Origin: a phage
Length of the DNA stretch: 64,000 nucleotides
Reading direction: 5' to 3' (one strand)
Assembly (NCBI GenBank): GCA_024613925.1
Contig: GCA_024613925.1_4713.1
This document shows, piece after piece, positions 33,666 through 47,900 of this stretch (position 1 is its first letter; every line of letters begins with the position of its first letter). The notes beneath the pieces are model-generated. The model searched no databases, had not been told where the DNA came from, and saw only the letters and a program-made list of their open reading frames with translations. A program made the position numbers and the translations under genes.

Positions 33666-34040
33666 TTAATGTTCGTTCCAGATGGCATCTTCCGGTGGAA
33701 CAATAGGATCTTTCTTCGGCATTGATGGCACTTCATGACGATGTTTACGGAACTGCCTATCAATAACCTCACGAAGCCGGTACGCGTCAACCCATGTTGA
33801 TTTATTGAACAGCTCCAACGTCACGGTTAATCGTGTTCTTGACATTGAATAGCTTTTCTTTGCAATCAAATTGGGATAATTCAGTTGAGCGAACCACGCA
33901 CGTATCTGTGCTTCGGTAAAAGCGATGCTGTAATAACTAAGTTTACCGTCATTAAAATCGTGCGCGTGGGTGTAGCGTCCAGCGTAACGCCAGACAAGAT
34001 GCACATTCAGATCGATCCATGGTGGGGTGGTATCAGCCAT
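33666..34040 (-). CDS. Hypothetical protein
   Basis: 124-aa ORF. Confidence 0.5.
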   Translation of the reverse strand: MADTTPPWIDLNVHLVWRYAGRYTHAHDFNDGKLSYYSIAFTEAQIRAWFAQLNYPNLIAKKSYSMSRTRLTVTLELFNKSTWVDAYRLREVIDRQFRKHRHEVPSMPKKDPIVPPEDAIWNEH

Positions 34041-34049
34041 GTGTTACCC

Positions 34050-34619
34050 TCAACGATTCTTCATCACTTTACCCAGGCTTTCGATATTATCCCAAAAGCG
34101 ATTTTTACTTGGCGCATCGCCAACGATAACCGACATCAAATCGCGACGTTCACGACTGATGATGCCCTGTGATTTCCAGATCACCATCGTCCAGCAAGCT
34201 GCCAGAACGAACAGATGGTTAATGCTCGGTTTGGTTTGCGCGATGAACGCAAGCCATGCCCAGATACCGGTATATACTAGCGTCACTAAAAAGAGGGAGA
34301 TTGTCGCAATGACAACAACGAAGTTTTGGACAGCGGGTTGATTCGCGTTATCATGAATAGCGGTAAGATCGGGAAGGTTACCTTCAACTGAACTCGTTTC
34401 ATCGATTTCCAATTCTTCGATTTCTTTTCGTGTGTCGGGAGCTAATCCGGCATCATCAAGATGCTTTTTTAACCGCTGTATACTTAATCGTTGACCGACA
34501 GGAATGTTGATGTTGTCGTAACTATTAAGCGCATCAACCAGGGAGCGCCCGTCAACGAGAACCAAGCTCGCAGTACCCATTGTCTGCGGTTTTATTTTGT
34601 AAAGGTCTTTTACTTTCAT
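34050..34619 (-). CDS. Putative membrane protein
   Basis: 189-aa ORF with hydrophobic segments (FVVVIATISLFLVTLVYTGIWAWLAFIA, LFVLAACWTMVIW). Confidence 0.5.
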   Translation of the reverse strand: MKVKDLYKIKPQTMGTASLVLVDGRSLVDALNSYDNINIPVGQRLSIQRLKKHLDDAGLAPDTRKEIEELEIDETSSVEGNLPDLTAIHDNANQPAVQNFVVVIATISLFLVTLVYTGIWAWLAFIAQTKPSINHLFVLAACWTMVIWKSQGIISRERRDLMSVIVGDAPSKNRFWDNIESLGKVMKNR

Positions 34620-34640
34620 GTAGACACCACCTCCAACGTG

Positions 34641-37253
34641 TTAAGCGTCTGGTGTAAAATCAAAAGGAATGTCCGTACGAATGACATCATAGCGTTTTCC
34701 GAGGAAATAAAACTCTTCGGGAACCTGACCGGGAATAATGCTATCGCCGATGAACTGCGGATACGCCCAGATGTACTGAGTGAGTCCTTCGAACATATCC
34801 AGGTTATTTGCGTGGTTGCCCATGATACGTTTCCAGAGTTCGCGTTTATACGGTGTTTTAACATCGAACCCATAAAGCGGTGCAAGATCTTCACCAGGAA
34901 CAAATCCCAGGTAATAGTGAATCTGACTAACCGGGAAACCAAGCGTATCTCGCGGAATGGTGATCGCTTGCTCTGCCTTGGTGACATGCGTCTCAATAAT
35001 CCAGTCGTAACACTCCGAATAGAACCGATCGAATTTCTCTGGATTATACCACGCTTTGGGAAGATTCAGTTTCTCCGTGAACGCGTTCGACATGATCGTC
35101 GGCAAGAACGGAAGAATACCGGTTTTGATCTGCGTGTATTTCGATTTTACCCGGTTAACCAAATTCCAGCAACTGTATCCTAACTGTTCGTTACAAAACT
35201 CAACGTAGAGATCGTAGTCACCGCCGGATAATGGGTTGTTGATGTCACCGATGTCTGCGGCATATTTGTTGGGATATCGGTTATTGAAAGCCAGTTTGGT
35301 CTGGTAGTCGTAGATACACGGTTTGTTGTTCGCTGTATTGATCCACCACCAAGGTTCACCTACCTGCACACAAATGTCCTGGACATGAGGGTAGATGATA
35401 TCAGCGAATGCCGTTAACACATCCCCTAACCACGCCATCGCCTGTTGGTTACATGGAGACAGCAACCAAGATGGTGGCGTATATCCGGTTGCTGCGATGT
35501 TTCCTTCCCAATCCTGCTGCGCCCACTCGAACGGGCATGCGGTACTCATCAATTCGTAACTTAAACTGATGGTGACAGAGAAATGGTGTTTTGCAGCATA
35601 TGCGGCGAAAGCTTCATGCCACGCAATACAGGCCGGATTTAATACATCCGTGGTGTTTACCAGTAACTTACCTGCACTTGGCGTCCAGACAGTATCGTAG
35701 AAATGCGACATGCCAACATAATGCACTAATTCATCTTGATATCCCGCATAAACCAGGTTCTCAAATACGCGCTCCGGCGTGATGTTGTAATGGTCATCAT
35801 AAGCAGTTATCGCACGAAGTTCGTGTGGTGTACAGTGGTGGCGACTAACCGTCATTTCCTGATACACCCCATCGATAGGAAGAATCTCGAGGGTTAAGCC
35901 GAGGTCGATTGGCGTTTCCAGATAGGTCGTTTCAGTCGCACCTTCCTTATAATGTCGAGAACTCATGCTGAACATCAACGACGCTACCGATTCGAGTTCG
36001 ATAGGCTCGTCAGCATAGAACCCCGCCATTGCGTCATTGAAATCGATCGTCACGATTGCGCTTCTACCGTCTTCAGAGACATCGGTCGCATATCGGGTTA
36101 ATGAGATATACTGACGGCTATCGTCTTTGTGTACGACGGTTAAAACCGGCGGGTGTTCGGTATCTGCAAAGTTACGCTGGTCGCCAGTAAACGTGACCTT
36201 CGCTTTAAAGATCAAACCGAGTAACGATGTCATGGGATCATACGCAATACTGCCGTGATCCAGCGTATCCGTTGTCCGCCATTCTATCCCGACCAACCCG
36301 TTAGCGGTATGGCATCGCATATACGCATTAAGTGTCATGTCCTCACTGACAACCGCGAAGTTCTCTGTTGACTGACCGTTGATAATCCAATACATCGGTT
36401 GCCAGAGGTTACGCGTACCTTTTGCGTAGTGGTAGGTTGGTGCGCCTTTGGGATTGCCATTATTAAGATGAAATACAGCAGTACCTTGATAATGGTCGTT
36501 CGTATTAATCGGAACACTGTAAGCATCACCGAGGTCCGTACGTTCGACCTTCGTGACTGTTGCGTTTTCAAACAACCCACGTAACGCCGGTAAACCGATA
36601 TCTTCAGGTGCGTTTTCTCGACGAATCGCATCCGCGATGCGGTGGGCTAAGGCGGGGTAAATGGCATCACCCTGTTGTAGGTTTGCAAGACCTACAAAGC
36701 GATCGGGGTCGATGCCAGCAATCAATAACTCAACATCACCCTTCGTTCTATCGTTGTGAAGATATTTCAGTCCAGTAAGATCGAGGTGCTGAATAAGCGA
36801 CAACAGGTTGTATTTACGGTTTTCAACAGTTAGTACAAGATCGCCTGCCCAAACCAAACTTCCCTCATCCGCTGTTACTTTAACGGATTGTCGGCCTGTG
36901 GTAGACGTTGTTGTCGTTTTATTTAATTGTCCTTGTAGGAAGTCGGTTGCGAGGTCAAAGGCAATGCCGTAACGGTCAGCGACCGCTTGCATGATTTCAC
37001 GTAACTGGGTATCTTCTTCAATGATAATCTTGACAGGTATTCCCAAGAACGCTTTAGCGAGGTCTCGTTTAACCAACGAGACGAATACGGATTTGTAGTA
37101 TCGACTTCCATCTTTCCCTTTAAAAAGAATGGAGGTTGTTTCGGGTGACGATAGAATACGCGCAAATTCAACATCGTCGAAAGTAAGAGAAAGTCCGTTT
37201 TTCTCGTTGACCAATCTTAGTATTTCATTTTGCGCGGTTTCATGTAACTTCAT
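34641..37253 (-). CDS. Tail fibre or tailspike protein with conserved N-terminal anchor domain and aromatic-rich C-terminal domain
   Basis: N-terminal block ..RDLAKAFLGIPVKI..YGIAFDLATDF shared with three other genes; C-terminus rich in W/Y (GEPWWWINTANNKP). Confidence 0.6.
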   Translation of the reverse strand: MKLHETAQNEILRLVNEKNGLSLTFDDVEFARILSSPETTSILFKGKDGSRYYKSVFVSLVKRDLAKAFLGIPVKIIIEEDTQLREIMQAVADRYGIAFDLATDFLQGQLNKTTTTSTTGRQSVKVTADEGSLVWAGDLVLTVENRKYNLLSLIQHLDLTGLKYLHNDRTKGDVELLIAGIDPDRFVGLANLQQGDAIYPALAHRIADAIRRENAPEDIGLPALRGLFENATVTKVERTDLGDAYSVPINTNDHYQGTAVFHLNNGNPKGAPTYHYAKGTRNLWQPMYWIINGQSTENFAVVSEDMTLNAYMRCHTANGLVGIEWRTTDTLDHGSIAYDPMTSLLGLIFKAKVTFTGDQRNFADTEHPPVLTVVHKDDSRQYISLTRYATDVSEDGRSAIVTIDFNDAMAGFYADEPIELESVASLMFSMSSRHYKEGATETTYLETPIDLGLTLEILPIDGVYQEMTVSRHHCTPHELRAITAYDDHYNITPERVFENLVYAGYQDELVHYVGMSHFYDTVWTPSAGKLLVNTTDVLNPACIAWHEAFAAYAAKHHFSVTISLSYELMSTACPFEWAQQDWEGNIAATGYTPPSWLLSPCNQQAMAWLGDVLTAFADIIYPHVQDICVQVGEPWWWINTANNKPCIYDYQTKLAFNNRYPNKYAADIGDINNPLSGGDYDLYVEFCNEQLGYSCWNLVNRVKSKYTQIKTGILPFLPTIMSNAFTEKLNLPKAWYNPEKFDRFYSECYDWIIETHVTKAEQAITIPRDTLGFPVSQIHYYLGFVPGEDLAPLYGFDVKTPYKRELWKRIMGNHANNLDMFEGLTQYIWAYPQFIGDSIIPGQVPEEFYFLGKRYDVIRTDIPFDFTPDA

Positions 37254-37275
37254 TAAAAACCTCAGCCCTTTAGAA

Positions 37276-37917
37276 TTAAATGTACTGCTTACCGCCCACG
37301 AAGGAAGTTAACCAGTTACCCGAAACAAGCTGCGAAGCCCAGCCAGGCACTGCCCTACCATTCTGGCTCATGATGTTACCACACCAACCAGGGAATCCGG
37401 GACGGATGTAATAGAAAGTTAAATTGTAGAGATGGCAATTCCATACCGCAACGTTATGTTTACCAGAAACCGCTTTAAAGACAAACGCAACGGGTAAAGG
37501 CGACGATAACAATTCAGTCACAGGAACAGCTGACCAGTTCGCATTCGCGTTCCACGGCTGCCATGTGTGTTTGCGCGAGTCACAGTTAACGTTACCGTTG
37601 TTACCGCGCCCACCCGCATGCCACCATAGCGACGGACTCATGTTCTTAAGTGAGGTAAATTGCTGCGGTGGAATATTAGGAATGATAACAGGGTTGGTAC
37701 CTTGTCCGTGTTTCTTTTCTTTTGCGTTTACATACCCACTTATCGATTCGAGGTATTTGACACCAGGATAATTGTTCTGGACTTGTGTCGCAATATCACG
37801 AACGTCGAACGTCCAGCAGATCATGGTGTTGTAGTAAGCGTCGGTGTTATCGTGCCATGAGTTACCATCTTGTAAACGTGCGCCGCTATTCGGTGTTTTA
37901 TCTGTACTTATAGCCAT
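37276..37917 (-). CDS. Hypothetical Trp-rich protein in the fibre cluster
   Basis: 213-aa ORF. Confidence 0.5.
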   Translation of the reverse strand: MAISTDKTPNSGARLQDGNSWHDNTDAYYNTMICWTFDVRDIATQVQNNYPGVKYLESISGYVNAKEKKHGQGTNPVIIPNIPPQQFTSLKNMSPSLWWHAGGRGNNGNVNCDSRKHTWQPWNANANWSAVPVTELLSSPLPVAFVFKAVSGKHNVAVWNCHLYNLTFYYIRPGFPGWCGNIMSQNGRAVPGWASQLVSGNWLTSFVGGKQYI

Positions 37918-38055
37918 GGTCTTGTCCTATACGTTGGTGGTTGAAATGGCGGATATCGGATGCATGCTGGACGTGAACCCTATAATTCGCGCTATCGCCA
38001 TTTTCTACCTCGTTTCTATTCTCAAAAAGGAAATTTCATACGATGACGCCATAGC

Positions 38056-38090
38056 AGCTCCTCCTTCCCTGACGGGTTGGAGGAGCATAC
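38056..38090 (-). terminator. GC-rich hairpin downstream of the lipoprotein gene
   Basis: GCTCCTCC ttccctgacgggtt GGAGGAGC with CATAGCA flank. Confidence 0.35.
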
Positions 38091-38094
38091 TTAA

Positions 38095-38601
38095 TTACTT
38101 ACTGATAACCTCAACGGAATCCGGGTCGGCGATCAGCGCACGATCGGTAGAACAATTGAAGAAGACCATACCAACACCATCACCGTTCGAGTTCAGGGTT
38201 GAACTTGCGTAAGACAGGGTTGGTTTATTCATGCGGTAGAAGCGTTCGCTGGTTGTGGTATTGAACCCCAGATCAACGTAGTCTTTCACCGTGGTGTACA
38301 ACTGTGTGGACTCGAAAACGGTTACCGGAGAGTCAACGGTAAACTGACTGCCTTCATCCACAACCAGAACTTTATCGTTCCAGATTTCAGTGGTTGAGAA
38401 CTTCGGTTTCCAATGTTCGAATTCCTGGGTTGCACCCCAGCAAGAATACACAGCGAGATTGCTGTTCTTCTCGACAGGTTTCAACCCCACCAGTTGTGTC
38501 AGGTCTTTATCCAGGTTCGGTAAACCTTCCAGCGTAGCACACCCACCCAGAGAAAGCACCATCAACATACCAAGAACGATCGTGCAAAGTTTCTTCATCA
38601 T
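38095..38601 (-). CDS. Putative lipoprotein (superinfection-exclusion candidate)
   Basis: N-terminus MMKKLCTIVLGMLMVLSLGGCAT: signal peptide with lipobox-like LGGC; sits between fibre genes. Confidence 0.55.
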   Translation of the reverse strand: MMKKLCTIVLGMLMVLSLGGCATLEGLPNLDKDLTQLVGLKPVEKNSNLAVYSCWGATQEFEHWKPKFSTTEIWNDKVLVVDEGSQFTVDSPVTVFESTQLYTTVKDYVDLGFNTTTSERFYRMNKPTLSYASSTLNSNGDGVGMVFFNCSTDRALIADPDSVEVISK

Positions 38602-38641
38602 CGGATTTCCTTATGTGTAACGGGAGTGATCTCCATAGTAA

Positions 38642-39226
38642 TTACACAGTTGTAGGAAATTCCGGCCAATCGATATTTGGTGCTGTTGATGTGTCAACGC
38701 GATGCAGAGCCACCCGATACTTTTTCCATGCCGTCAACATGGACACCTCTTCTTCCGTTGCGATCTCCAGATCCACAGCATCCTGAAGTGGCGTAATATG
38801 ATCATTCGCCGCCTTCATCAGACTGTTTTTTGTTTCTTCCGCCTCCCGGATCCGGAACAGTTTTTCTGCTTCCGTATCCTTCACCCAGGCTGTGCCGTCC
38901 CACTTCTGAAACTCCCCTTCCGGCGATAACCAGGTAACATTTTCCGGTAACGGACCGAGTTCAGAAATAAATAACGCGTCGCCGGAAGCCACGTCATAAA
39001 CCGTTTTACCCCGATGATCTTCAACGAGATGCCACGATTCATTTTCATTGTTAAAAACTGCCACAAAACCAGCAGGAATTTCCGGTGGGGCGATATCTGT
39101 AGAATTAGCTGGCAGACCTGTATGAGGCGGAATATATGCATCACCTTCACCAATAAATTCATTAGTTCCGGCCAGCAGATTATAAATTTTTATGGTCCGT
39201 GGTTGTTCACTCATTCTGAATGCCAT
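38642..39226 (-). CDS. tfa: Tail fibre assembly protein (lambda Tfa family)
   Basis: [39 protein letters not shown]... matches the lambda/E. coli prophage Tfa chaperone as recalled from memory; directly follows the fibre gene with start/stop overlap. Confidence 0.85.
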
Positions 39227-42200
39227 TATGCAAGCCTCACGATGTAGTTAAATGCAATGTTTTTGACGGTGTTTTCCGCGTTACCCGTAGCGTTAACGGT
39301 GATGGTGTGTCCATGTGATCCAATCGCAACCGAGTGCGTATGCGCACCAATACCTACAGTATGTGCATGTGCGCCAGAACTTGCTGCAGTACCAGACAGC
39401 GAGTGGGTATGTGCTCCATCTGATGATGTCTTCCCTGATATACGGGTCATACCTGAGCCACCTTCCAGTGGTACAATTGGTGCTTTGACTGAAACCTGGG
39501 TATAACCGTTAGGAAAGAGTGCACCATTATTAGAATTCGTATATGGTCCAGAACTCCGGTGTTGGTGCCCACCTGCACTATTTGCAGTCCCGCTCACACT
39601 GTGTGTATGTGCCCCGGTGTTATTCGTGGATTTAGTGCCGTAATCAAACGACGATGTGGTTTTCGTCCCCAAATCCGTATTGGATGCGCTGGCGCTATGG
39701 TTGTGCGATTTTATGCCGTCCTGTTCCTGAGACAATACGGCACGACCACTGGCAGGTTTGCCCTTAATCGTCCAGCCACGCATATCAGGAATAACGCCTG
39801 ACGGATAAGCCACTGCAAGTTTCGGGTATACAGATTTGTCAAAAGTCTGCCCTTGCATCAGAGCATAACCAGACGGAACGGTATCTGAAGGCCATGGAAT
39901 AGGCGCGCCAACAGGCAACTCCGGAGGTGCGGTAAACTCACCCAACTCCTTTATTGCCTCAATAAGTAGAGCTATTTGGGCAGAGATAGAGACCGTTAAA
40001 ACGTCCTCACCATTAGCGTCTTTATAAGTAGAAACTGCTTCAGGTAACACTTTTTGTAAGGTTTGTGCTACAACGCCAACCTCACGATGAACATTAGTGG
40101 ATTTAAAGTTCTCCTTTTTGTCGTATATTAAACCTGACAATTTCTTTACCTTCTCCAATGCATTAGTTATTGGAGAGAAATTACTTTTCAGCCGGGCGTC
40201 TGATCGTGTATAAACTTCGTTAAAGTTACCGTTCCCATCACAATCTATATTTCCAGTAACGTTGAGAGGTACATAGCTTTGAACAGCCTCTCTCGTAAAG
40301 CGTAAAACGTGGTCATAATCGGCGTAAACATCTAGAACGCCGTCCCCGTTCTGCTTAAAGCCGGTGTCATCATCCCCTAAAGCTATGGAGTTCTCACCTA
40401 AATGATTCTCGGTTCCAATACCCAGATTATCGCTTAAAATACTATCAATAGCAAATATTGAATGAGAACAATAAAACCCTCGTCCATTGTTAAAATCCAA
40501 AATGGTTTGTGCGTTCGTGCTTTCTGTCGCGGGATTAGTTGCTCCCCACTTATAGGTTGTTTGACCGACGGTATAATTCTTGGTCGGAACACTAACCGAT
40601 AACCCTTCTTCGGCAAAAACTTGAATAGGGAAAGCCCTACCTTCGACGTAAAAAACGCTGCACACATCATCATCTTCCGCACCTGTTACAATGGAATGGA
40701 TTGCGCGCTCATCAGTATCATATATCGAAAAATACCCTGCTGCGTATGAACCACGATCAGTCCAACCGCCCGGCATTACCGTTCCATTGAATTCGCAGTT
40801 ATTCATTGCATAATCACCACTGGCAGATGTGGTTGTAATAACCACTCTGGAAGCCAGTTCGCCAGTGCTACCAGTGGAACGCCGGAAAATAACTGGATAC
40901 CACTTTCCGCCAACGGCTTTAGACGGCGCGTTAAATACGTACTGCCGCATTCCTTTTTTCTTATCCACCTCGTCTTTGCTGTAAACATTAATGTTACTCA
41001 GGAAGCGACCCTTATCAGGAATATCTGCGCCGTTAGAACTGCGTTGCATAGCGCCCGCAGCTTTATCAACAGTGGTTTTCAAACCCAGGAAGTTAATGAT
41101 ATCGGCCGTCGACCCTTTCGCTAACAAATCACGCGCAGTCGAGGTGAAATCCGCTAACCCTACCTGATTACTACCGGTAAAATAAGGGAGTTTATTCGCT
41201 TCTGTTGTTAGGTTAGACCACGCCGTGAGCAGCGCGTTCAAAGGTTGTTTACCCGCCAACGTATTGGTTATTGTCGTTGCGAAATTAGGATCGTTCCCTA
41301 AAGCTTGAGCCAGCTCATTAAGCGTATTTAGCGCTTCTGGAGACGAGTCGATCAGTGATGCGATAGCACGCATCACAAATTCCGTGTTGGCAATCTGTCG
41401 ACTGCTATCGTTCTCTGCAGCCGTAGGCGCTGCCGGGATACCGGTGAACACAGGGCTATTAAGATCTGCCTTGAGAGCGATGAGACGTTTAAGTGCGTCG
41501 ACATCGACTTTCAGGTTTTCCCATCCGATGAGAGAACCACCACTGCTGGCATGGTAACGGTTGTACCAGAAGTCACCGTTAACGCCTAAAAAGAATATTC
41601 CCTTCTCTTCGTTTTGTGGGCCGGAACTATTTCGTGACGAGCTGATGTAATTGATTTCAATGAGGCCGTTAAACGTCACTCCCGGGATGATTTTGTTGTC
41701 TCCAGCCGACTGTGATACCTGGTAAATCCCCGGGGTTGCGGCTTTGACCCATGTTAAGAATTCTGTTACTCCAGCGGTACCGCTGAAATTCTTAACGTCG
41801 GTAAGTATTGCCCCATAACCGAACATACCGGGTAGAGCCACTCGTCCGTTGGTGCGGTCACGAATATCTGTTGCAACAACAGGCAATTGTTTACGAACGG
41901 CATTAACCGCTTTAGGCGTGGCCGATTTTGTCTCGTCGTCGCTATCGGTTTCATTACTTAGAATAGTTAAACCGCGCGTAGCAGTCGTTGCATCAGGAAG
42001 AAATGCGTTATCCAACACCTTAAGCTGTATTGCACTCGTATTACTAACAACGACATGCACCTGACAGTTAAGAACGCTGGTTGCGCCTTCGGTAGGCGTA
42101 GGCTTATATCTTTCTGGCGCACTGCAGACGGCAATCAGAACACCTTGGTCATCATACAAACCGATCTCACGTACCCAGAACCCACCTTGACCAGCAGGAA

Positions 42201-42438
42201 TAATACCCTCAACGATAATCCTGGTTGTGCTGTCACCATCCGCATGGATATTAGAAACTTCCCCACGATAAACTTCGTGAACAAGCGCTGTTTGGCTGGC
42301 GTTCGGGGTTGGGATCGAGCCGTTACCATCACCAACGGCAAAGTGTGTGATTTTTAGTTTCTCACCGTCGGGAAGTAACGCAGCGGTGATACGTTCTGCT
42401 CCTTTATCGGTAACTACCGTTATATATGCTGTACTCAT
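39226..42438 (-). CDS. Tail fibre protein, mosaic: P2 gpH-like N-terminus and lambda Stf-like His-x-His C-terminal tip
   Basis: N-terminus ..[20 protein letters not shown].. and collar motif [26 protein letters not shown]; C-terminus [53 protein letters not shown]. Confidence 0.85.
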
Positions 42439-42444
42439 GGTGTT

Positions 42445-42972
42445 TTATCCTGGATAAATAGTGATGATATCACCAATGACGGTTGTGGCACCGGCGTAAA
42501 GATGAGCCGGGGATACATCGTGTTGGTTTGTCACAGTAAGATCCAATCGACCACGCCAAACCATGGAGGTATTCGCGATGGGGATAGAGATCTTTTTGGA
42601 TATATCGTCACGAAAATCAATAACAGTGGCAAGGGTAACTGCATCAAAATCGACGTCGGGGTCAAAGACGAACCCGTATCGATCTGAAATCGCCCGAATA
42701 ATCGCATGTATAGTTGTTGTCTCAACGGACTCTAAAACGATTTTTACCGGTATTCCTAAAAATGCCTTCGCGATATCGCGTCGAGCGTAAACGATAAAAC
42801 TTTCACCGCACCACTTTGTTCCTTCATTTGCTGTGACGATCACTTTTGCCCTGTTAGCACCAGAACTCCCATCCAATGTTAATGTAAGATCGGAGCTGCT
42901 GAACACGCTACCGTTACGTTGGTTTATCAACGTAATCAGTTCGTCTTTCCATGGCGGGTAAAGTGAACGCAT
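42445..42972 (-). CDS. Small fibre-associated protein with the conserved N-terminal anchor domain
   Basis: Start moved to ATG at 42972 (MRSLYPPWKDEL) with GGAGGAGGG ribosome-binding site; RRDIAKAFLGIPVKI..YGFVFDPDVDF block. Confidence 0.55.
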   Translation of the reverse strand: MRSLYPPWKDELITLINQRNGSVFSSSDLTLTLDGSSGANRAKVIVTANEGTKWCGESFIVYARRDIAKAFLGIPVKIVLESVETTTIHAIIRAISDRYGFVFDPDVDFDAVTLATVIDFRDDISKKISIPIANTSMVWRGRLDLTVTNQHDVSPAHLYAGATTVIGDIITIYPG

Positions 42973-43127
42973 AAGCGCACCCTCCTCCAACAATCAAATT
43001 AAATTGTAAACGCCTCGAGACCGGAGTGCGATTCGAGGTAAACGTAAACAGTCCAGACGACCGCATAAAATTCCGCGCATATTGCCCCTCTATCCCGACA
43101 AAGCGAGATAGAGGGAGGATAATACTT

Positions 43128-44882
43128 TTATGCTGCTACGTATCCCGGCCAACGTTCTCTTGGCCAGTTTGTTGCGCCCTGCCCAACGTTGTCCTTACCA
43201 GAAATTACATTACTTACGTCCCAACCGCTAAGGTCTTGGTTAAATGCGGTGTTATCGCGCATCATGAGATCGATCTCACGTAGTGACTGGGTATTCCAGC
43301 CGGAAATGTCTTGGTTAAATGCTTTATTGGAGGCAAACATGTTAGTCACGTTCTGTAATTTTGATGTGTTCCAACCACCGATATCACTATTGAACGACGT
43401 GTCCGAGAACATGCCTGCGGCGTTAATGAGGCTGTCTGTTTTCCAGTTAATCAGCTTGTCACCATCGAGCGCCCTGCAACCACCGAACATAAAACTCATA
43501 TCGTTAACTTTGGATACATTCCATTTATCTAACCCGTTACCAACGAACGCGTAACAAGACTGGAACATCCAGCTCATATCGGTAACCCGACTCACATTCC
43601 ATTTACTGAAGTCGAGGTTAAGTTTCTGACACCCTAAGAAGGTTTCACACATACTGGTGATACGACTAACATCCCACTCTTGGATGTTGGGGTCGTTAAG
43701 CGTCGTTAAATAGTTGAACAATTTGTCTAACGACGTCCATTTCTCTGGGATACGGTTTGGTACTGTATGAAGCGATGAAAGGTTATTGGTTGATGGAGAG
43801 CGGAACATGCCGTTATCCCAATTTACGATCTCCGTAATTTCGTACCCTCTGATCGTCTGAGTAGCGTAACCATCTTTCACCGTACCTGTAGCGACGATGG
43901 TATATTCACCAGTGTCCGCATAATCGTGGACGTAGGCATTGTTGCTGGCGGTCTCCGTCGTCTTAGTCCCATCACCCCAATCGATATTGACGTTATCCCA
44001 CCCACCTAGTTTGAACTGTACTTTGCCTCCGGTGGCTTTTAGGATGTATTTACCCCCATTGTCTGTATAATAACAGACAACCATTGGACCGTACAGATTA
44101 CCTATCTGCCAATCATCCTTTTGCGTTATTGCGATTTGCGCCGCACCACGCTGTACGAAGAGTACCGTACGATTCTCGGCAGTCTGTAATGTGGTTATTG
44201 CCTGAGCCTTATCGTCCTCGCTAATTTCACCAGACACCACTAAAGCGCTTAACATCCTTTCGAAGTATTCGATCGGTAACTCAGCTCCAACAGACTTATC
44301 AACAGACTGTACAGCAAGATCACCCAATGCTGCAGTGGTAGCCAATGCCAATGAACCCTTGGTCATATCTGTTTCTTGGATGTAATGCAGTCCCGTAAGC
44401 TGGTACGCTTGAATAATAGTAATCAGGTTCAGCGTATCGTTAACGACCTGTACTTGTAAATACCCGGACCACACATAGCTGTCTTCGGCAATTAGTAGAT
44501 CGACTGACTGAATACCTGATGTTTCAAAGGTGATCTTCTCATTAAGATCGGTTTCCAGGAAATCAACCGCGAGGTCGAAATTAATGCCGTACTTTTCAGC
44601 GATGGAATCTACGATATTTCTTAAAGTAACATCTGTGCTTACGATAAAACGTAACGGAATTCCTGTAAACGCTTTAGCAATGTCTCGACGAACATACGTA
44701 AGCGATTGTTCGAAGAAATACGGGCTGTTATCTCCAGGCTTGATGGTTACCTGGCACACTTCAGGATATTCGGCTGGGATGAACGATTCGAATTTAACAT
44801 CGGATTCTTTCAACGAAAGATTGTTATTCCGGTTCACTAACGCCAGAAGATCGGCTTTCCATCCGGGGTAAACTGTAGACAT
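43128..44882 (-). CDS. Tail fibre with N-terminal anchor domain and C-terminal DUF285/BspA-like repeats
   Basis: Start moved to ATG at 44882 (MSTVYPGWKADL, GGAG upstream); C-terminal repeats WDVSRITSMCETF / WNVSRVTDMSWMF / WNVSKVNDMSFMF / WNTSKLQNVTNMF / WNTQSLREIDLMM / WDVSNV. Confidence 0.65.
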   Translation of the reverse strand: MSTVYPGWKADLLALVNRNNNLSLKESDVKFESFIPAEYPEVCQVTIKPGDNSPYFFEQSLTYVRRDIAKAFTGIPLRFIVSTDVTLRNIVDSIAEKYGINFDLAVDFLETDLNEKITFETSGIQSVDLLIAEDSYVWSGYLQVQVVNDTLNLITIIQAYQLTGLHYIQETDMTKGSLALATTAALGDLAVQSVDKSVGAELPIEYFERMLSALVVSGEISEDDKAQAITTLQTAENRTVLFVQRGAAQIAITQKDDWQIGNLYGPMVVCYYTDNGGKYILKATGGKVQFKLGGWDNVNIDWGDGTKTTETASNNAYVHDYADTGEYTIVATGTVKDGYATQTIRGYEITEIVNWDNGMFRSPSTNNLSSLHTVPNRIPEKWTSLDKLFNYLTTLNDPNIQEWDVSRITSMCETFLGCQKLNLDFSKWNVSRVTDMSWMFQSCYAFVGNGLDKWNVSKVNDMSFMFGGCRALDGDKLINWKTDSLINAAGMFSDTSFNSDIGGWNTSKLQNVTNMFASNKAFNQDISGWNTQSLREIDLMMRDNTAFNQDLSGWDVSNVISGKDNVGQGATNWPRERWPGYVAA

Positions 44883-44922
44883 AAGCACTCCAAAGTTCAT
44901 GGGGCGGTAACCGCCCCGTTGG

Positions 44923-47900
44923 TTAAATTGTTGGTTTAATATCGCGTAATAGGGCAATATAATAGCCTAATCCTCGGAGGATCTCTCCACTCCAGAAACC
45001 AAAATACATTCCGTCTCTGCCGAGATTAGCGCTATCTGGTGCAGGACTCCACCCACCATTCATTACGTCATCAACGGTGTAGCGGTTGATGTAGTTCTCA
45101 ACGATTTCGTTATACGCATTAACCGCAACAGAATAGCCTTTATCGTTGGGATGTCCGTACAACATTGCTAACGACGCACCCGCCAACCATAATCCTGCCA
45201 TATGACCAGTAAAATCATTAGGGATAAAAGCAGGGGGTTTATCCATCGGAAAATCCGTAGGAGATTGATAAGCGTTTTCCTGTTGATACGTAAACAAGAA
45301 ATCGATCCAATGGCTGATGTAAGTGGTTAACTTCTCAGGGACGGCTAAACCACGATCGAGCAGTCCAGCATAAAGCCTCACCGCTGAGAAGAAAGCCCTC
45401 GGCTGATAACCAGACCATGCCGTCTGATCGCCGAAGTGGTACATCGTAAAATCATTAACTTTTGATCCGCTTGGCGCATCCCAACGATCCCACACGTACG
45501 CACTTGCCCCTGGCCCTAAAACCCCGAATTTCTGATAATACCACTGCTGCGAGTCATACCAGAAATTCACAACATTCTGAATCATGAGGTCACGTCGTTC
45601 AGCCGATACGTCCATATCCAGGAAGACCCATGGATGTTGGTAGCCGGGATAAGGCTGACCACGCCAACTGTCGAACGTCGGTGCGTTAGGGACATAGTTG
45701 TTCGAGAACGGAATAATACCCGGAGTATAAGGCAATGGATCCAGACGTTGGTTGACAATCGTACAATCGCCAACACGCAGTGTGCCCTCCGCCTCAAAGG
45801 TTGCTTTTAACGTAAACAGCATGGTATATCCGTCATCCGTGGTGTAAGTTGACGGTGGATTGTTGATGGCGTAAAGCTTAAATACCCCTTCAGCGATATC
45901 GCCGTCGTCAGGCAAGAACAGAATTTCAGTTGAACCATCGCCCCACACAGGTGCAGAAGGTTTAGGGTCAGTATCAGCGTGGCCCGGTTGATACCCTGAG
46001 AGCGTCCATCCGTTCGCCGAAAGCGTCAATGTATTTCTTGCTGTGGTGGCCGGTAGCATATACCACCATCGCCAGCCGTTTGTATCTTCTACACGAACGT
46101 TGTAGTCAATCGACGCGAAATAACTGACCTGCCTTACGATCTGTTTTGCGGTCGGATTGAATTCAAATTGCCCGCCTGCCGCAGTAAGCTGCGCTTTTAG
46201 GAACAACCCATCCCAGGAATCTTCCACCGCTTCGCTGAATTCTGTTGTGATGGCGACATCATCTTTCCAGCCGACTTTATCAGCCGATATCAACACAGAA
46301 CCTGTAACAGCATCGCCGGTTGGCGTTGAAGCTTCATCAACCGCATCAGCAGGAATCAACGAGCCTATTTTGAAATCCCATTCTTTCGGCTCGGCACTGG
46401 AAGGTAACACCAGCTTGTACGTTTTGGCTTTCGCTTCGGTTTTGTCCAAAGAAAGCGATAATGAGATCTCAACCGGAATTGCAATACCCGCTGTATCTTT
46501 ACCACCGCAGGTTACACGAAGAATTGAATCACGATTGACGCGGAACGGAATAGCCTGCTGTTCAAGGTAAATTTGTGCTGAGGATGCTTGAATCACGATC
46601 CAGCCGTCAGTATCACGTGTAATTGTGAACGGTGCTTTCGATGGATAGGTATACGTGTAAGCGATACCGTCGGTGTCGTAACGATCGGTTCCTTTTACCT
46701 GACGGAAGAACTTATCGTTGGCGTCGATACGAGTATATTCTTCAATCGTAAACAACGATGCCTTGTACGCTTTCTGATAGCGCTCCTGCTGCGTTAAACT
46801 GTATAAGGTGTAGGCTGCTTCACAAAACCACTGTTCAGCGTCTGACGCGTTTCCCATGTAGTCTCTGGTGACCGGCACCTGGATCGGTCGGTTATGCTGA
46901 CACTCGTTCGTTTTGATGAGGTATCCGCCATATTCAACAGGAACGCGGGGTGCCCACGCAACCAAATAAGAACCGCTGACGGACTTATCTTTGAGTACGA
47001 TGGTGCCCACCTCATCGTCAGTACACGCTTCAAGATCGTCCCCGCCCACACTTACGTATCGTTTTGTGCGTAACGCAACTTTCTCGATAGGGAACACCGT
47101 ACCCTTTGTATCCCAGTCAATCGTCCCATCATCATTGGTTTTGAACACATCGGCGTTCAAATTCTGCCAGCCGAGTTTACCCTCATAGACCTGAACAACA
47201 AGATCCATGTATTCCCCGAACGTTGGTGCCCCATGTGTTATTTTCCCGATACCGTTGGTGAATGTAACCGCGGTGTCATGGAAACCGCCATGTGTCGGGT
47301 AATCGTTTTTTGCAAGAGGATAATGGGCCAACACCGGCTGTTTACCATTAACAATCCAGTTAGCGATCCAGCGTGCCGGTGTATCCGGTGGTTCAAGACC
47401 CGCATAGAACGCTTTTATATACGCATCGAACGATGCCTCCGCTAATGTGAGATAGTGCGCTTTAAGCTTGGTATCATCCGTTGTATGACTGAATATACCC
47501 GCACCCAGAATTAACAACGACTGTCCTTCTGTTGTTGCGTCACCATCCGGTTGTGCTTCTTGTCGTGTTGCTGCAATGAAATGACGGTTGTTTACCATGA
47601 CCCCGCTTTCATTTAACACGTAATGATCGGTTTCTGGATCGGTAAACGTTCCTGTGTTTCGGGTTAAGAATCTTGCATGGCCATAACCAACGAAATTAAC
47701 CGGCGACGCTGTAATCATCCATTTACCGATAAGTTGAGCAACATCATTATAACGCTCGGATGCGGTGATTTGTTTCACGTACCAGTCTTTACGGTTAAAT
47801 GTCCAAAGCAGGAAGTAATAAGTTGTATCGATTTCCATCACTGGGAACGTCGGCGTTAACGGCTCCAGCATTAAGTAGTTGCTCCAGTCAATCTGTCCGC

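Follow-up and report, generated by a model that had tools for sequence, protein, structure and literature searches.

A Goslar-type tail fiber gene with a lambda Stf-type tip downstream of an internal Peptidase_S74 domain

The exchange of fiber tips between phages is textbook knowledge. Here we describe a tail fiber gene and the adjacent chaperone gene, tfa, at positions 38642–42438 of a 64,000-nucleotide stretch of phage DNA (GenBank assembly GCA_024613925.1, contig GCA_024613925.1_4713.1; hereafter the window), in which both T-even solutions for ending a fiber, a self-cleaving chaperone of the T2 type and a T4/lambda-type tip with Tfa, are found in tandem in one polypeptide. In T2 and T6, gp37 is cleaved and then capped by gp38, and in T4, the fiber end and g38 have been replaced by lambda sequences (PMC3157838). 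In phage S16, the last 113 residues of gp37, which constitute an intramolecular chaperone (IMC), are autocleaved after trimerization, exposing the surface on which gp38 docks (PMC7917993). An internal S74-type domain with more polypeptide downstream is found in the eukaryotic protein MYRF, which undergoes cleavage and whose coiled coil is complete, with four heptads (PMC8326128), whereas the corresponding helix in the window is truncated and the direct match to MYRF is weak (7DC3, E = 0.12). The T-shaped fibers of the BASEL collection with dual receptor-binding domains (RBDs), such as Gp24 of IrisVonRoten, also unite an IMC with two modules of the receptor-binding type in a single polypeptide (PMC11990801), but there the IMC lies at the extreme C terminus, after RBD2, whereas in the window it precedes the only intact tip. 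Finally, little horizontal transfer has been reported for the core genes of chimalliviruses, which was attributed to the segregation of their genomes in a phage nucleus (PMC12908238); the accessory fiber locus of the nucleus-forming chimallivirus described here has nonetheless acquired sequences both from another lineage of jumbo phages and from a lambdoid cassette.

Compared with these systems, the locus combines features of several. With T4 gp37/gp38 it shares a Collar domain and a needle tip with His-x-His (HxH) motifs (match to the solved T4 gp37 tip 2XGF, E = 1.5e-81) as well as a chaperone gene of the lambda Tfa type directly downstream. To our knowledge, T4 gp37 has no S74 chaperone, whereas the window keeps a truncated one just upstream of the tip, and the fiber base in the window is of the P2 gpH/Goslar type and not of the T-even type. 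The likeness to T4 extends to the event itself, in that lambdoid sequences replaced a T2-type fiber end in a virulent phage (PMC3157838). The gp37 proteins of T2, S16, and the fPS phages (6F45) share with the window a GDxDTGxKQNGDG motif, a short distal end, and an IMC with a ...VY.R^SD.RLKSNF site, but the window has no gp38 gene, and its IMC, shortened by 8 residues at the end, is internal, with 238 residues of another tip after it. The stf-tfa cassettes of lambda (Ur-lambda) and of Qin/Rac-type prophages resemble the tip and Tfa of the window and have the same stop/start overlap; compared with lambda Stf, however, the N-terminal anchor and shaft are unrelated, there are seven rather than eight HxH motifs, the head differs, and the last 13 codons of tfa are of the Goslar type. 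In the E. coli jumbo phage vB_EcoM_Goslar, gp90 and gp89 occupy the same slot with the same flanks, and the first 421 residues of the fiber are shared; the distal 900 residues of gp90 and the 138-aa Tfa have been replaced in the window. Goslar gp90 has been detected in virions (bioRxiv 10.64898/2026.04.21.720040).

Parts of the fiber and their donors

Both genes lie on the minus strand. The fiber open reading frame (ORF; 39226–42438) encodes 1070 amino acids (113.5 kDa) in a single frame that is uninterrupted across all junctions, and the tfa ORF (38642–39226) encodes 194 amino acids; the stop codon of the first and the start codon of the second overlap by one base (TAATG), as in lambda. An earlier interpretation made from the letters of this DNA alone (the sequence-only reading) had placed the two genes here, and both ORFs and all of the motif strings that it quoted were found. 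Pfam models matched the fiber as Phage_tail_fib at residues 1–141 (PF12571, E = 6e-41), Phage_fiber_2 at 151–182 (PF03406), Peptidase_S74 at 746–802 (PF13884, E = 2.7e-15), and Collar at 844–891 (PF07484, E = 9e-11), and matched Tfa as Caudo_TAP (PF02413, E = 8.8e-43). The domain and homology matches of the fiber and Tfa are not at chance level.

Comparison at the nucleotide level divides the locus into blocks. The window is 94.2% identical to Goslar across 80% of its first 25 kb, and on either side of the fiber module, the identity (blastn) is about 96%. Goslar-like sequence extends over 34000–38683 and again over 41174–43139, a lambdoid stf-tfa-like block (84–92% identity, with a gap over 39423–39589) over 38664–39915, and the remaining segment, 39916–41173, had no blastn match to Goslar or to lambdoid stf-tfa. 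In Goslar, the same slot holds a 1324-aa fiber (annotated as P1 gpS-like, with a Gly_rich_2 C terminus) and a 138-aa Tfa. The module is thus foreign to the phage backbone, as the sequence-only reading had proposed, and the fiber is almost certainly a real mosaic of several donors.

The base of the fiber, residues 1–421 (41176–42438), is Goslar's own and anchors the fiber. It is about 95% identical to Goslar gp90, and the DNA is 96.3% identical to Goslar over 41174–43139. It consists of a P2 gpH-type N-terminal domain (residues 1–141), a Goslar-specific insert (residues ~183–320), and a conserved stretch with the motif KLPYFTG, in which the donor switch from base to shaft falls. BLASTP against P2 gpH (E = 6e-73) gave about 50% identity over residues 1–140 and about 60% over residues 323–467, with the Goslar-specific insert between them, in agreement with the P2 gpH-type N terminus that had been recognized from the sequence alone.

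The shaft (residues 422–745; 40204–41175) and the Peptidase_S74 IMC (residues 746–832; 39943–40203) derive from a fiber like that of a Salmonella-associated jumbo phage. The reference here is L007 (GCA_008057595.1, contig AAJMYY010000001.1, 224,826 bp, from a Salmonella Typhimurium assembly), which, together with a near-identical locus in IMG/VR, L012, represents a second jumbo-phage lineage. The window is 95.7% identical to L007 (blastn) over 39942–40243, 92.6% over 40246–41034, and 83.7% over 41012–41304, and no named GenBank phage closely matches this segment of L007. The L007 contig itself looks like a jumbo-phage genome, with a homolog of the window's 1198-aa protein, a DUF7941 gene, and a T2-style fiber. 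In L007 and L012, a fiber of 1541–1555 amino acids ending in S74 is followed by two gp38-type adhesin genes (Pfam Gp38_N/GP38) and then by the DUF7941 gene, so that the order of IMC end and gp38 is exactly that of T2 and S16; one of the two adhesins of L007 has polyglycine stretches. Tracing collinearity by tblastn, we note that a single copy of the motif NGADIPDK (41011–41034) in the window bridges two copies that are about 680 amino acids apart in the L007 fiber. The window fiber is accordingly without two stretches of L007, namely the ~680 residues between the NGADIPDK motifs and an insert of about 90 residues before the cleavage site, the latter of which is also missing from T2 gp37. Within the shaft, a domain of about 190 amino acids (residues ~476–665) is also found in Stf proteins of lambdoid prophages (PS1, Chlobot) and in a P2-like phage fiber (P22H4), and residues ~675–838 resemble the C-terminal end of T2-type gp37 (about 53% amino acid identity, tblastn) and S16 gp37 (6F45, E = 8e-9).

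The cleavage motif of the S74 domain, EVYTR^SDARLK, is intact, with the codon of Ser746 at 40201–40203 and that of Lys751 at 40186–40188. The Ser-Lys dyad within S-D-x-R-x-K is present as SDARLK (residues 746–751) and aligns with T2 gp37; the window site in its longer form, EVYTR^SDARLKS, also aligns with T2, and the S16 site DLNVS^SDRRIKK aligns with DVYIR^SDGRLKI of T2-like phages (PMC7917993). The nearest relatives of the S74 region in the databases (92–93% amino acid identity) terminate at the S74 domain, ending ...IKELAEIIETKL*, and all 10 of the relatives examined end 8–17 residues past the KEL core, whereas in the window, 238 residues follow the domain. Further, the terminal coiled-coil helix is incomplete, its last 8 residues, AEIIETKL, being replaced by GEFTAPPE. 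No relative of the S74 segment was found among the GTDB representative genomes. The lambdoid Stf proteins of Chlobot, mEp332, and PS1, which aligned across the junction between S74 and collar, were discarded because they have no S74 domain and the alignment there is spurious. In Goslar, gp25 (L095 18462–20510) is annotated as Peptidase_S74 and was detected in virions, indicating that the lineage already uses S74-type chaperones elsewhere in the tail (bioRxiv 10.64898/2026.04.21.720040); tblastn detected no similarity between gp25 and the S74 segment of the window.

The distal end of the fiber, residues 841–1070 (39229–39918), is a tip of the lambda Stf/T4 gp37 type that begins with the Collar domain (residues 844–891; 39766–39909) and includes a variable head (residues ~958–1012; 39403–39567) that is flanked by the two sets of HxH motifs and diverges from lambda. 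It has seven HxH motifs, at residues 912, 944, 958, 1010, 1024, 1033, and 1042, and a conserved C terminus. The lambda Stf-like tip and cognate Tfa named in the sequence-only reading were both borne out by BLASTP, with 68% identity to lambda orf-314, the C terminus of Stf (E = 2e-110), and 86% identity to lambda Tfa (E = 3e-128). In Tfa, the lambda-type N-terminal and middle parts extend over 38684–39226, with the lambda-like alignment starting at 38664, and residues 126–191 match the Tfa of Mu (5YVQ). North et al. are said to have reported in 2019 that the lambda-type N-terminal part of Tfa is the fiber-binding domain; this part is intact here, the crossover in tfa being confined to the last 13 codons. 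We conclude that the tip and Tfa derive from a lambdoid stf-tfa cassette. A Qin-type prophage of E. coli MB53, the stf of which is frameshifted, has a tip that is 91% and a Tfa that is 87% identical in amino acid sequence. Among 5,426 complete E. coli genomes, stf/tfa is present in 4,438, and the best nucleotide match is only 90.2%, which implies that the donor is unsampled or that the transfer was not very recent.

Joints, sister variant, and recombination history

The joints of the mosaic lie at conserved motifs, including VDT..AP in the C-terminal part of Tfa, with the exception of one irregular joint, where the truncated S74 domain meets a fragment of Goslar's old tfa. At the DNA level, the join between S74 and tip has three parts: L007-like sequence up to ...AAGGAGTTGG, then 23 nucleotides that resemble Goslar tfa, and then the Stf tip. 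The linker encoded here (residues 833–840, GEFTAPPE; 39919–39942) is a relic of a Goslar-type tfa, its 23 nucleotides matching nucleotides 156–179 of Goslar tfa at 20 positions. The right-hand crossover lies inside tfa, in the conserved motif VDT..AP..WP, so that the last 13 codons and the stop codon (38642–38683) are of the Goslar type.

A sister variant in a Logan assembly, P0266, has a 97% identical fiber with 13 substitutions and the same fusion of S74 to tip, but its linker is 22 amino acids longer, in frame. Within this linker, a stretch of 15 residues matches Goslar Tfa (NGEFIAPPEPERQHEE) at 14 positions, with 15 further residues besides. The substitutions between the two fibers are clustered, with a 13-to-0 split (P = 0.009 if they were uniform) that we did not use as evidence; the clustering suggests patchy recombination rather than point mutation. 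The simplest history, in an order of events that we infer, would be that the distal fiber of a Goslar-like phage gave way to an L007-type end, joined irregularly on its right side to the resident tfa, that a lambdoid cassette of tip and tfa next took the place of what was left of this tfa as far as the conserved C-terminal motif, and that the window lineage subsequently lost 66 nucleotides of the linker.

To determine how widespread the junction is, we conducted an exhaustive HMMER search of 1.84 billion representatives with a 239-residue junction segment as the query and inspected the best 150 of 32,263 hits. Among these, the only match that spanned both the S74 region and the collar was P0121 (HCJ5982422.1), a fiber protein identical to that of the window and encoded in an E. 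coli assembly on a contig of 238,567 bp. P0122, which ranked next, lacks S74 and contains two collars. In a word-indexed search of 5.8 billion proteins, none of the best 120 hits combined PF13884 with PF07484, and the exact junction DNA was absent from IMG/VR and the JGI metagenomes. Thus, among the hits examined, the junction is common only to the identical protein and the 97%-identical P0266, and more distant proteins with S74 and collar are possible beyond the listed hits. P0122 (938 aa, from an E. coli prophage) is another tandem-tip mosaic with two Stf collars, in which the first tip ends after the third HxH and is joined to a segment that resembles a gp34 trimer, followed by a complete second tip.

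The fiber slot is a hotspot of exchange: across four related jumbo phages, the flanking genes are the same but the distal end differs in each, which suggests that there is selection on the fiber end. Besides the window, these are Goslar with its Gly_rich_2 end and 138-aa Tfa, L007/L012 with the S74 end and two gp38-type adhesins, and IMGVR_UViG_3300011560_000001, in which the slot holds a 1174-aa fiber with yet another C terminus and no tfa.

The internal S74 domain and the fate of the tip

We favor the reading that this is a genuine, naturally assembled tail fiber gene of a Goslar-like, nucleus-forming jumbo phage, in which the distal two-thirds of the fiber and the assembly chaperone have been replaced by successive recombination, and we think it probable, to a similar degree, that most virion fibers keep the tip covalently attached. 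The tip and Tfa very likely constitute a foldable module of the lambda/T4 type. The lambda-type Tfa would fold the trimeric HxH needle tip, which would be the receptor-binding end of the fiber, and the S74 domain would still help to trimerize the β-helical shaft upstream of it. We propose that the loss of its terminal coiled-coil heptad to a Gly/Pro-rich linker would leave the S74 domain with little or no cleavage activity, and that the domain would stay as an internal knot between shaft and tip. After the position of the fusion point, T2 has 12 residues and L007 has 8, and the 10 S74-terminated relatives examined all keep 8–17 amphipathic residues. In MYRF, helix-driven trimerization is required for cleavage, and single substitutions in the last heptads abolish it (PMC8326128); by analogy with MYRF, the truncated IMC helix would be evidence for impaired cleavage. 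Further, both known variants, the window fiber and P0266, keep the tip and its cognate tfa in frame. The outcome would repeat, in a jumbo phage, the swap of a T2-type for a T4-type fiber end, with the T2-type chaperone left in.

Several observations weigh against an attached tip. Both the Ser746/Lys751 dyad and the ...VY.R^SD.RLK site have remained intact and correspond to those of T2 and the fPS phages, in which cleavage occurs (PMC7917993), and the S74-type domain of MYRF cleaves efficiently with hundreds of residues downstream (PMC3742443). A trimeric tip downstream could also hold the three chains in register and so rescue trimerization of the IMC. Given the 95.7% nucleotide identity of the S74 segment to its relatives, its intact catalytic residues are uninformative on selection, and in-frame conservation across just two sequences is weak evidence. 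An AlphaFold2 monomer model of residues 647–1070, built from a 26-sequence alignment, had a mean predicted local distance difference test score (pLDDT) of 39.8 and a predicted template modeling score (pTM) of 0.21, values too low to favor either outcome and in line with expectation for one chain of a trimeric fiber.

Were the S74 domain fully active, the chain would be cut between Arg745 and Ser746 after trimerization, the virion fiber would be a stub of 745 amino acids (79.7 kDa) that resembles T2 gp37 and has no adhesin, and the 33.8-kDa fragment of IMC, linker, and Stf tip would be released with Tfa, as a functionless passenger of recent recombination. We regard this as possible, although rather doubtful. 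The cleavage motif has been preserved and can be aligned with its counterparts in T2, S16, and the fPS phages, MYRF cleaves despite its long C-terminal extension (PMC3742443), the S74 segment was acquired recently (95.7% nucleotide identity) and would have had no time to decay, and a blunt fiber might be tolerated, as Goslar-like phages have many other host-recognition fibers (DUF7941 proteins; bioRxiv 10.64898/2026.04.21.720040). Against full cleavage, the IMC coiled coil is without its terminal heptad and is shorter than in any natural relative examined (n = 10), the equivalent region being essential for cleavage of MYRF (PMC8326128). Moreover, two diverged variants keep 230–250 downstream codons and the cognate tfa in frame, and strong diversifying exchange seems to act on the locus, which would favor recombinants with a working tip. 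It is improbable, on our estimate, that the internal S74 domain cleaves partially or conditionally, in which case one gene may give rise both to tip-bearing fibers and to blunt fibers, with a soluble trimer of IMC, linker, and tip (3 × 33.8 kDa) released at lysis. Partial cleavage would imply either virions of mixed specificity, a form of bet-hedging, or a receptor-binding protein set free to mask the receptor on debris or on neighboring cells. Still less likely, in our view, is processing as in T2 and S16 followed by capping with a gp38-type adhesin encoded elsewhere, which would make the Stf tip irrelevant. The closest S74 relatives, L007 and L012, do have two gp38-type genes downstream, and the distal shaft matches S16 gp37 (6F45), but tblastn found no gp38 homolog in the 64-kb window or in the complete Goslar genome, and in all known cases gp38 is directly downstream of g37, a place that is occupied here by tfa.

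Two further explanations concern the gene itself, and we give hardly any credence to either. That the junction is an assembly artifact, in which reads of a jumbo phage were joined to those of a lambdoid prophage resident in the sequenced E. coli, could be suspected because the contig was assembled by a third party from E. coli data and because stf/tfa is present in most complete E. coli genomes (4,438 of 5,426). Yet in an independent Logan assembly, S74 and tip are fused in the same way in a diverged variant (P0266) whose linker differs in length. Both junctions keep the reading frame, and the best prophage match is only about 90% identical in nucleotide sequence. Further, the left junction holds a relic of Goslar tfa, and the right one re-enters Goslar-like sequence inside tfa, which no assembler would create. 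The sequence-only reading had described a simple mosaic of two parts, in which a P2 gpH-type N terminus and a lambda Stf tip are directly joined, the shaft between them being an ordinary one. Both end domains are as described and the fiber is indeed a mosaic, but one of four parts: residues 422–840 are of separate origin and include the Peptidase_S74 domain and the tfa relic.

The locus has an ordinary part, the horizontal exchange of a lambda-type tip and Tfa into a virulent phage, and three unusual ones: a self-cleaving chaperone that has been retained, in truncated form, upstream of the tip, a linker that holds a relic of tfa, and a recipient that forms a nucleus. The fiber looks like an intermediate, caught in the act, of the swap that produced the T4 fiber. 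It also provides a natural test of an S74 chaperone that has been truncated and placed upstream of another trimeric domain, which is useful for those who engineer chimeric fibers.

Receptor and neighboring genes

The module had been taken to point to an E. coli-type host and to OmpC or lipopolysaccharide (LPS) as the receptor of the fiber. The host fits, as the window is a relative of Goslar and comes from an E. coli assembly, but the inference of this receptor is not justified. Lambda Stf binds OmpC (PMC12617516, PMC11338833), and the distal head, residues ~958–1012, is precisely the part of the tip that diverges from lambda. The nearest relatives of the head are the MB53 Qin-type allele (91% amino acid identity over the whole tip) and siphophage fibers of the JenK1/HdSG1 type (76–78%); its identity to T4 is about 45%. 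We found no receptor data for the MB53 Qin-type allele or for fibers of the JenK1/HdSG1 type, and Goslar appears in a preprint on receptor prediction only as a strain source. That the receptor is a component of the E. coli outer membrane is a fair inference; OmpC is possible and not indicated.

Sharanji was considered as a relative of Goslar and rejected. The GC content is 0.394 at 40000–40499, in the S74-type segment, compared with about 0.46–0.50 around it; apart from this dip, the composition profile showed no strong contrast for the module. A scan of 37900–45100 for sigma-70 promoters and terminators remained at background level, and the relevance of sigma-70 is doubtful in a chimallivirus; chimalliviruses, as far as is known, transcribe with their own polymerases.

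The genes that flank the module are conserved and, like it, lie on the minus strand. Downstream, positions 38095–38601 encode a 168-aa homolog of Goslar gp88 with a signal peptide and a lipobox-like LSLGGC motif. It belongs to PHROG 9559 and is found directly downstream of the fiber/tfa slot also in Goslar (gp88) and in L009. The place of this lipobox protein beside receptor-binding genes recalls superinfection-exclusion lipoproteins such as Llp of T5. Upstream, positions 42445–42993 encode a 182-aa DUF7941 protein, the homolog of Goslar gp91. Beyond it, 43140–44885 is an insertion relative to Goslar, and an ORF on the minus strand (43128–44957) encodes a protein of 609 amino acids that has a DUF7941 module at its N terminus and also contains DUF285 repeats; this protein would be an additional member of the DUF7941 "fiber cloud" proposed for Goslar (bioRxiv 10.64898/2026.04.21.720040).

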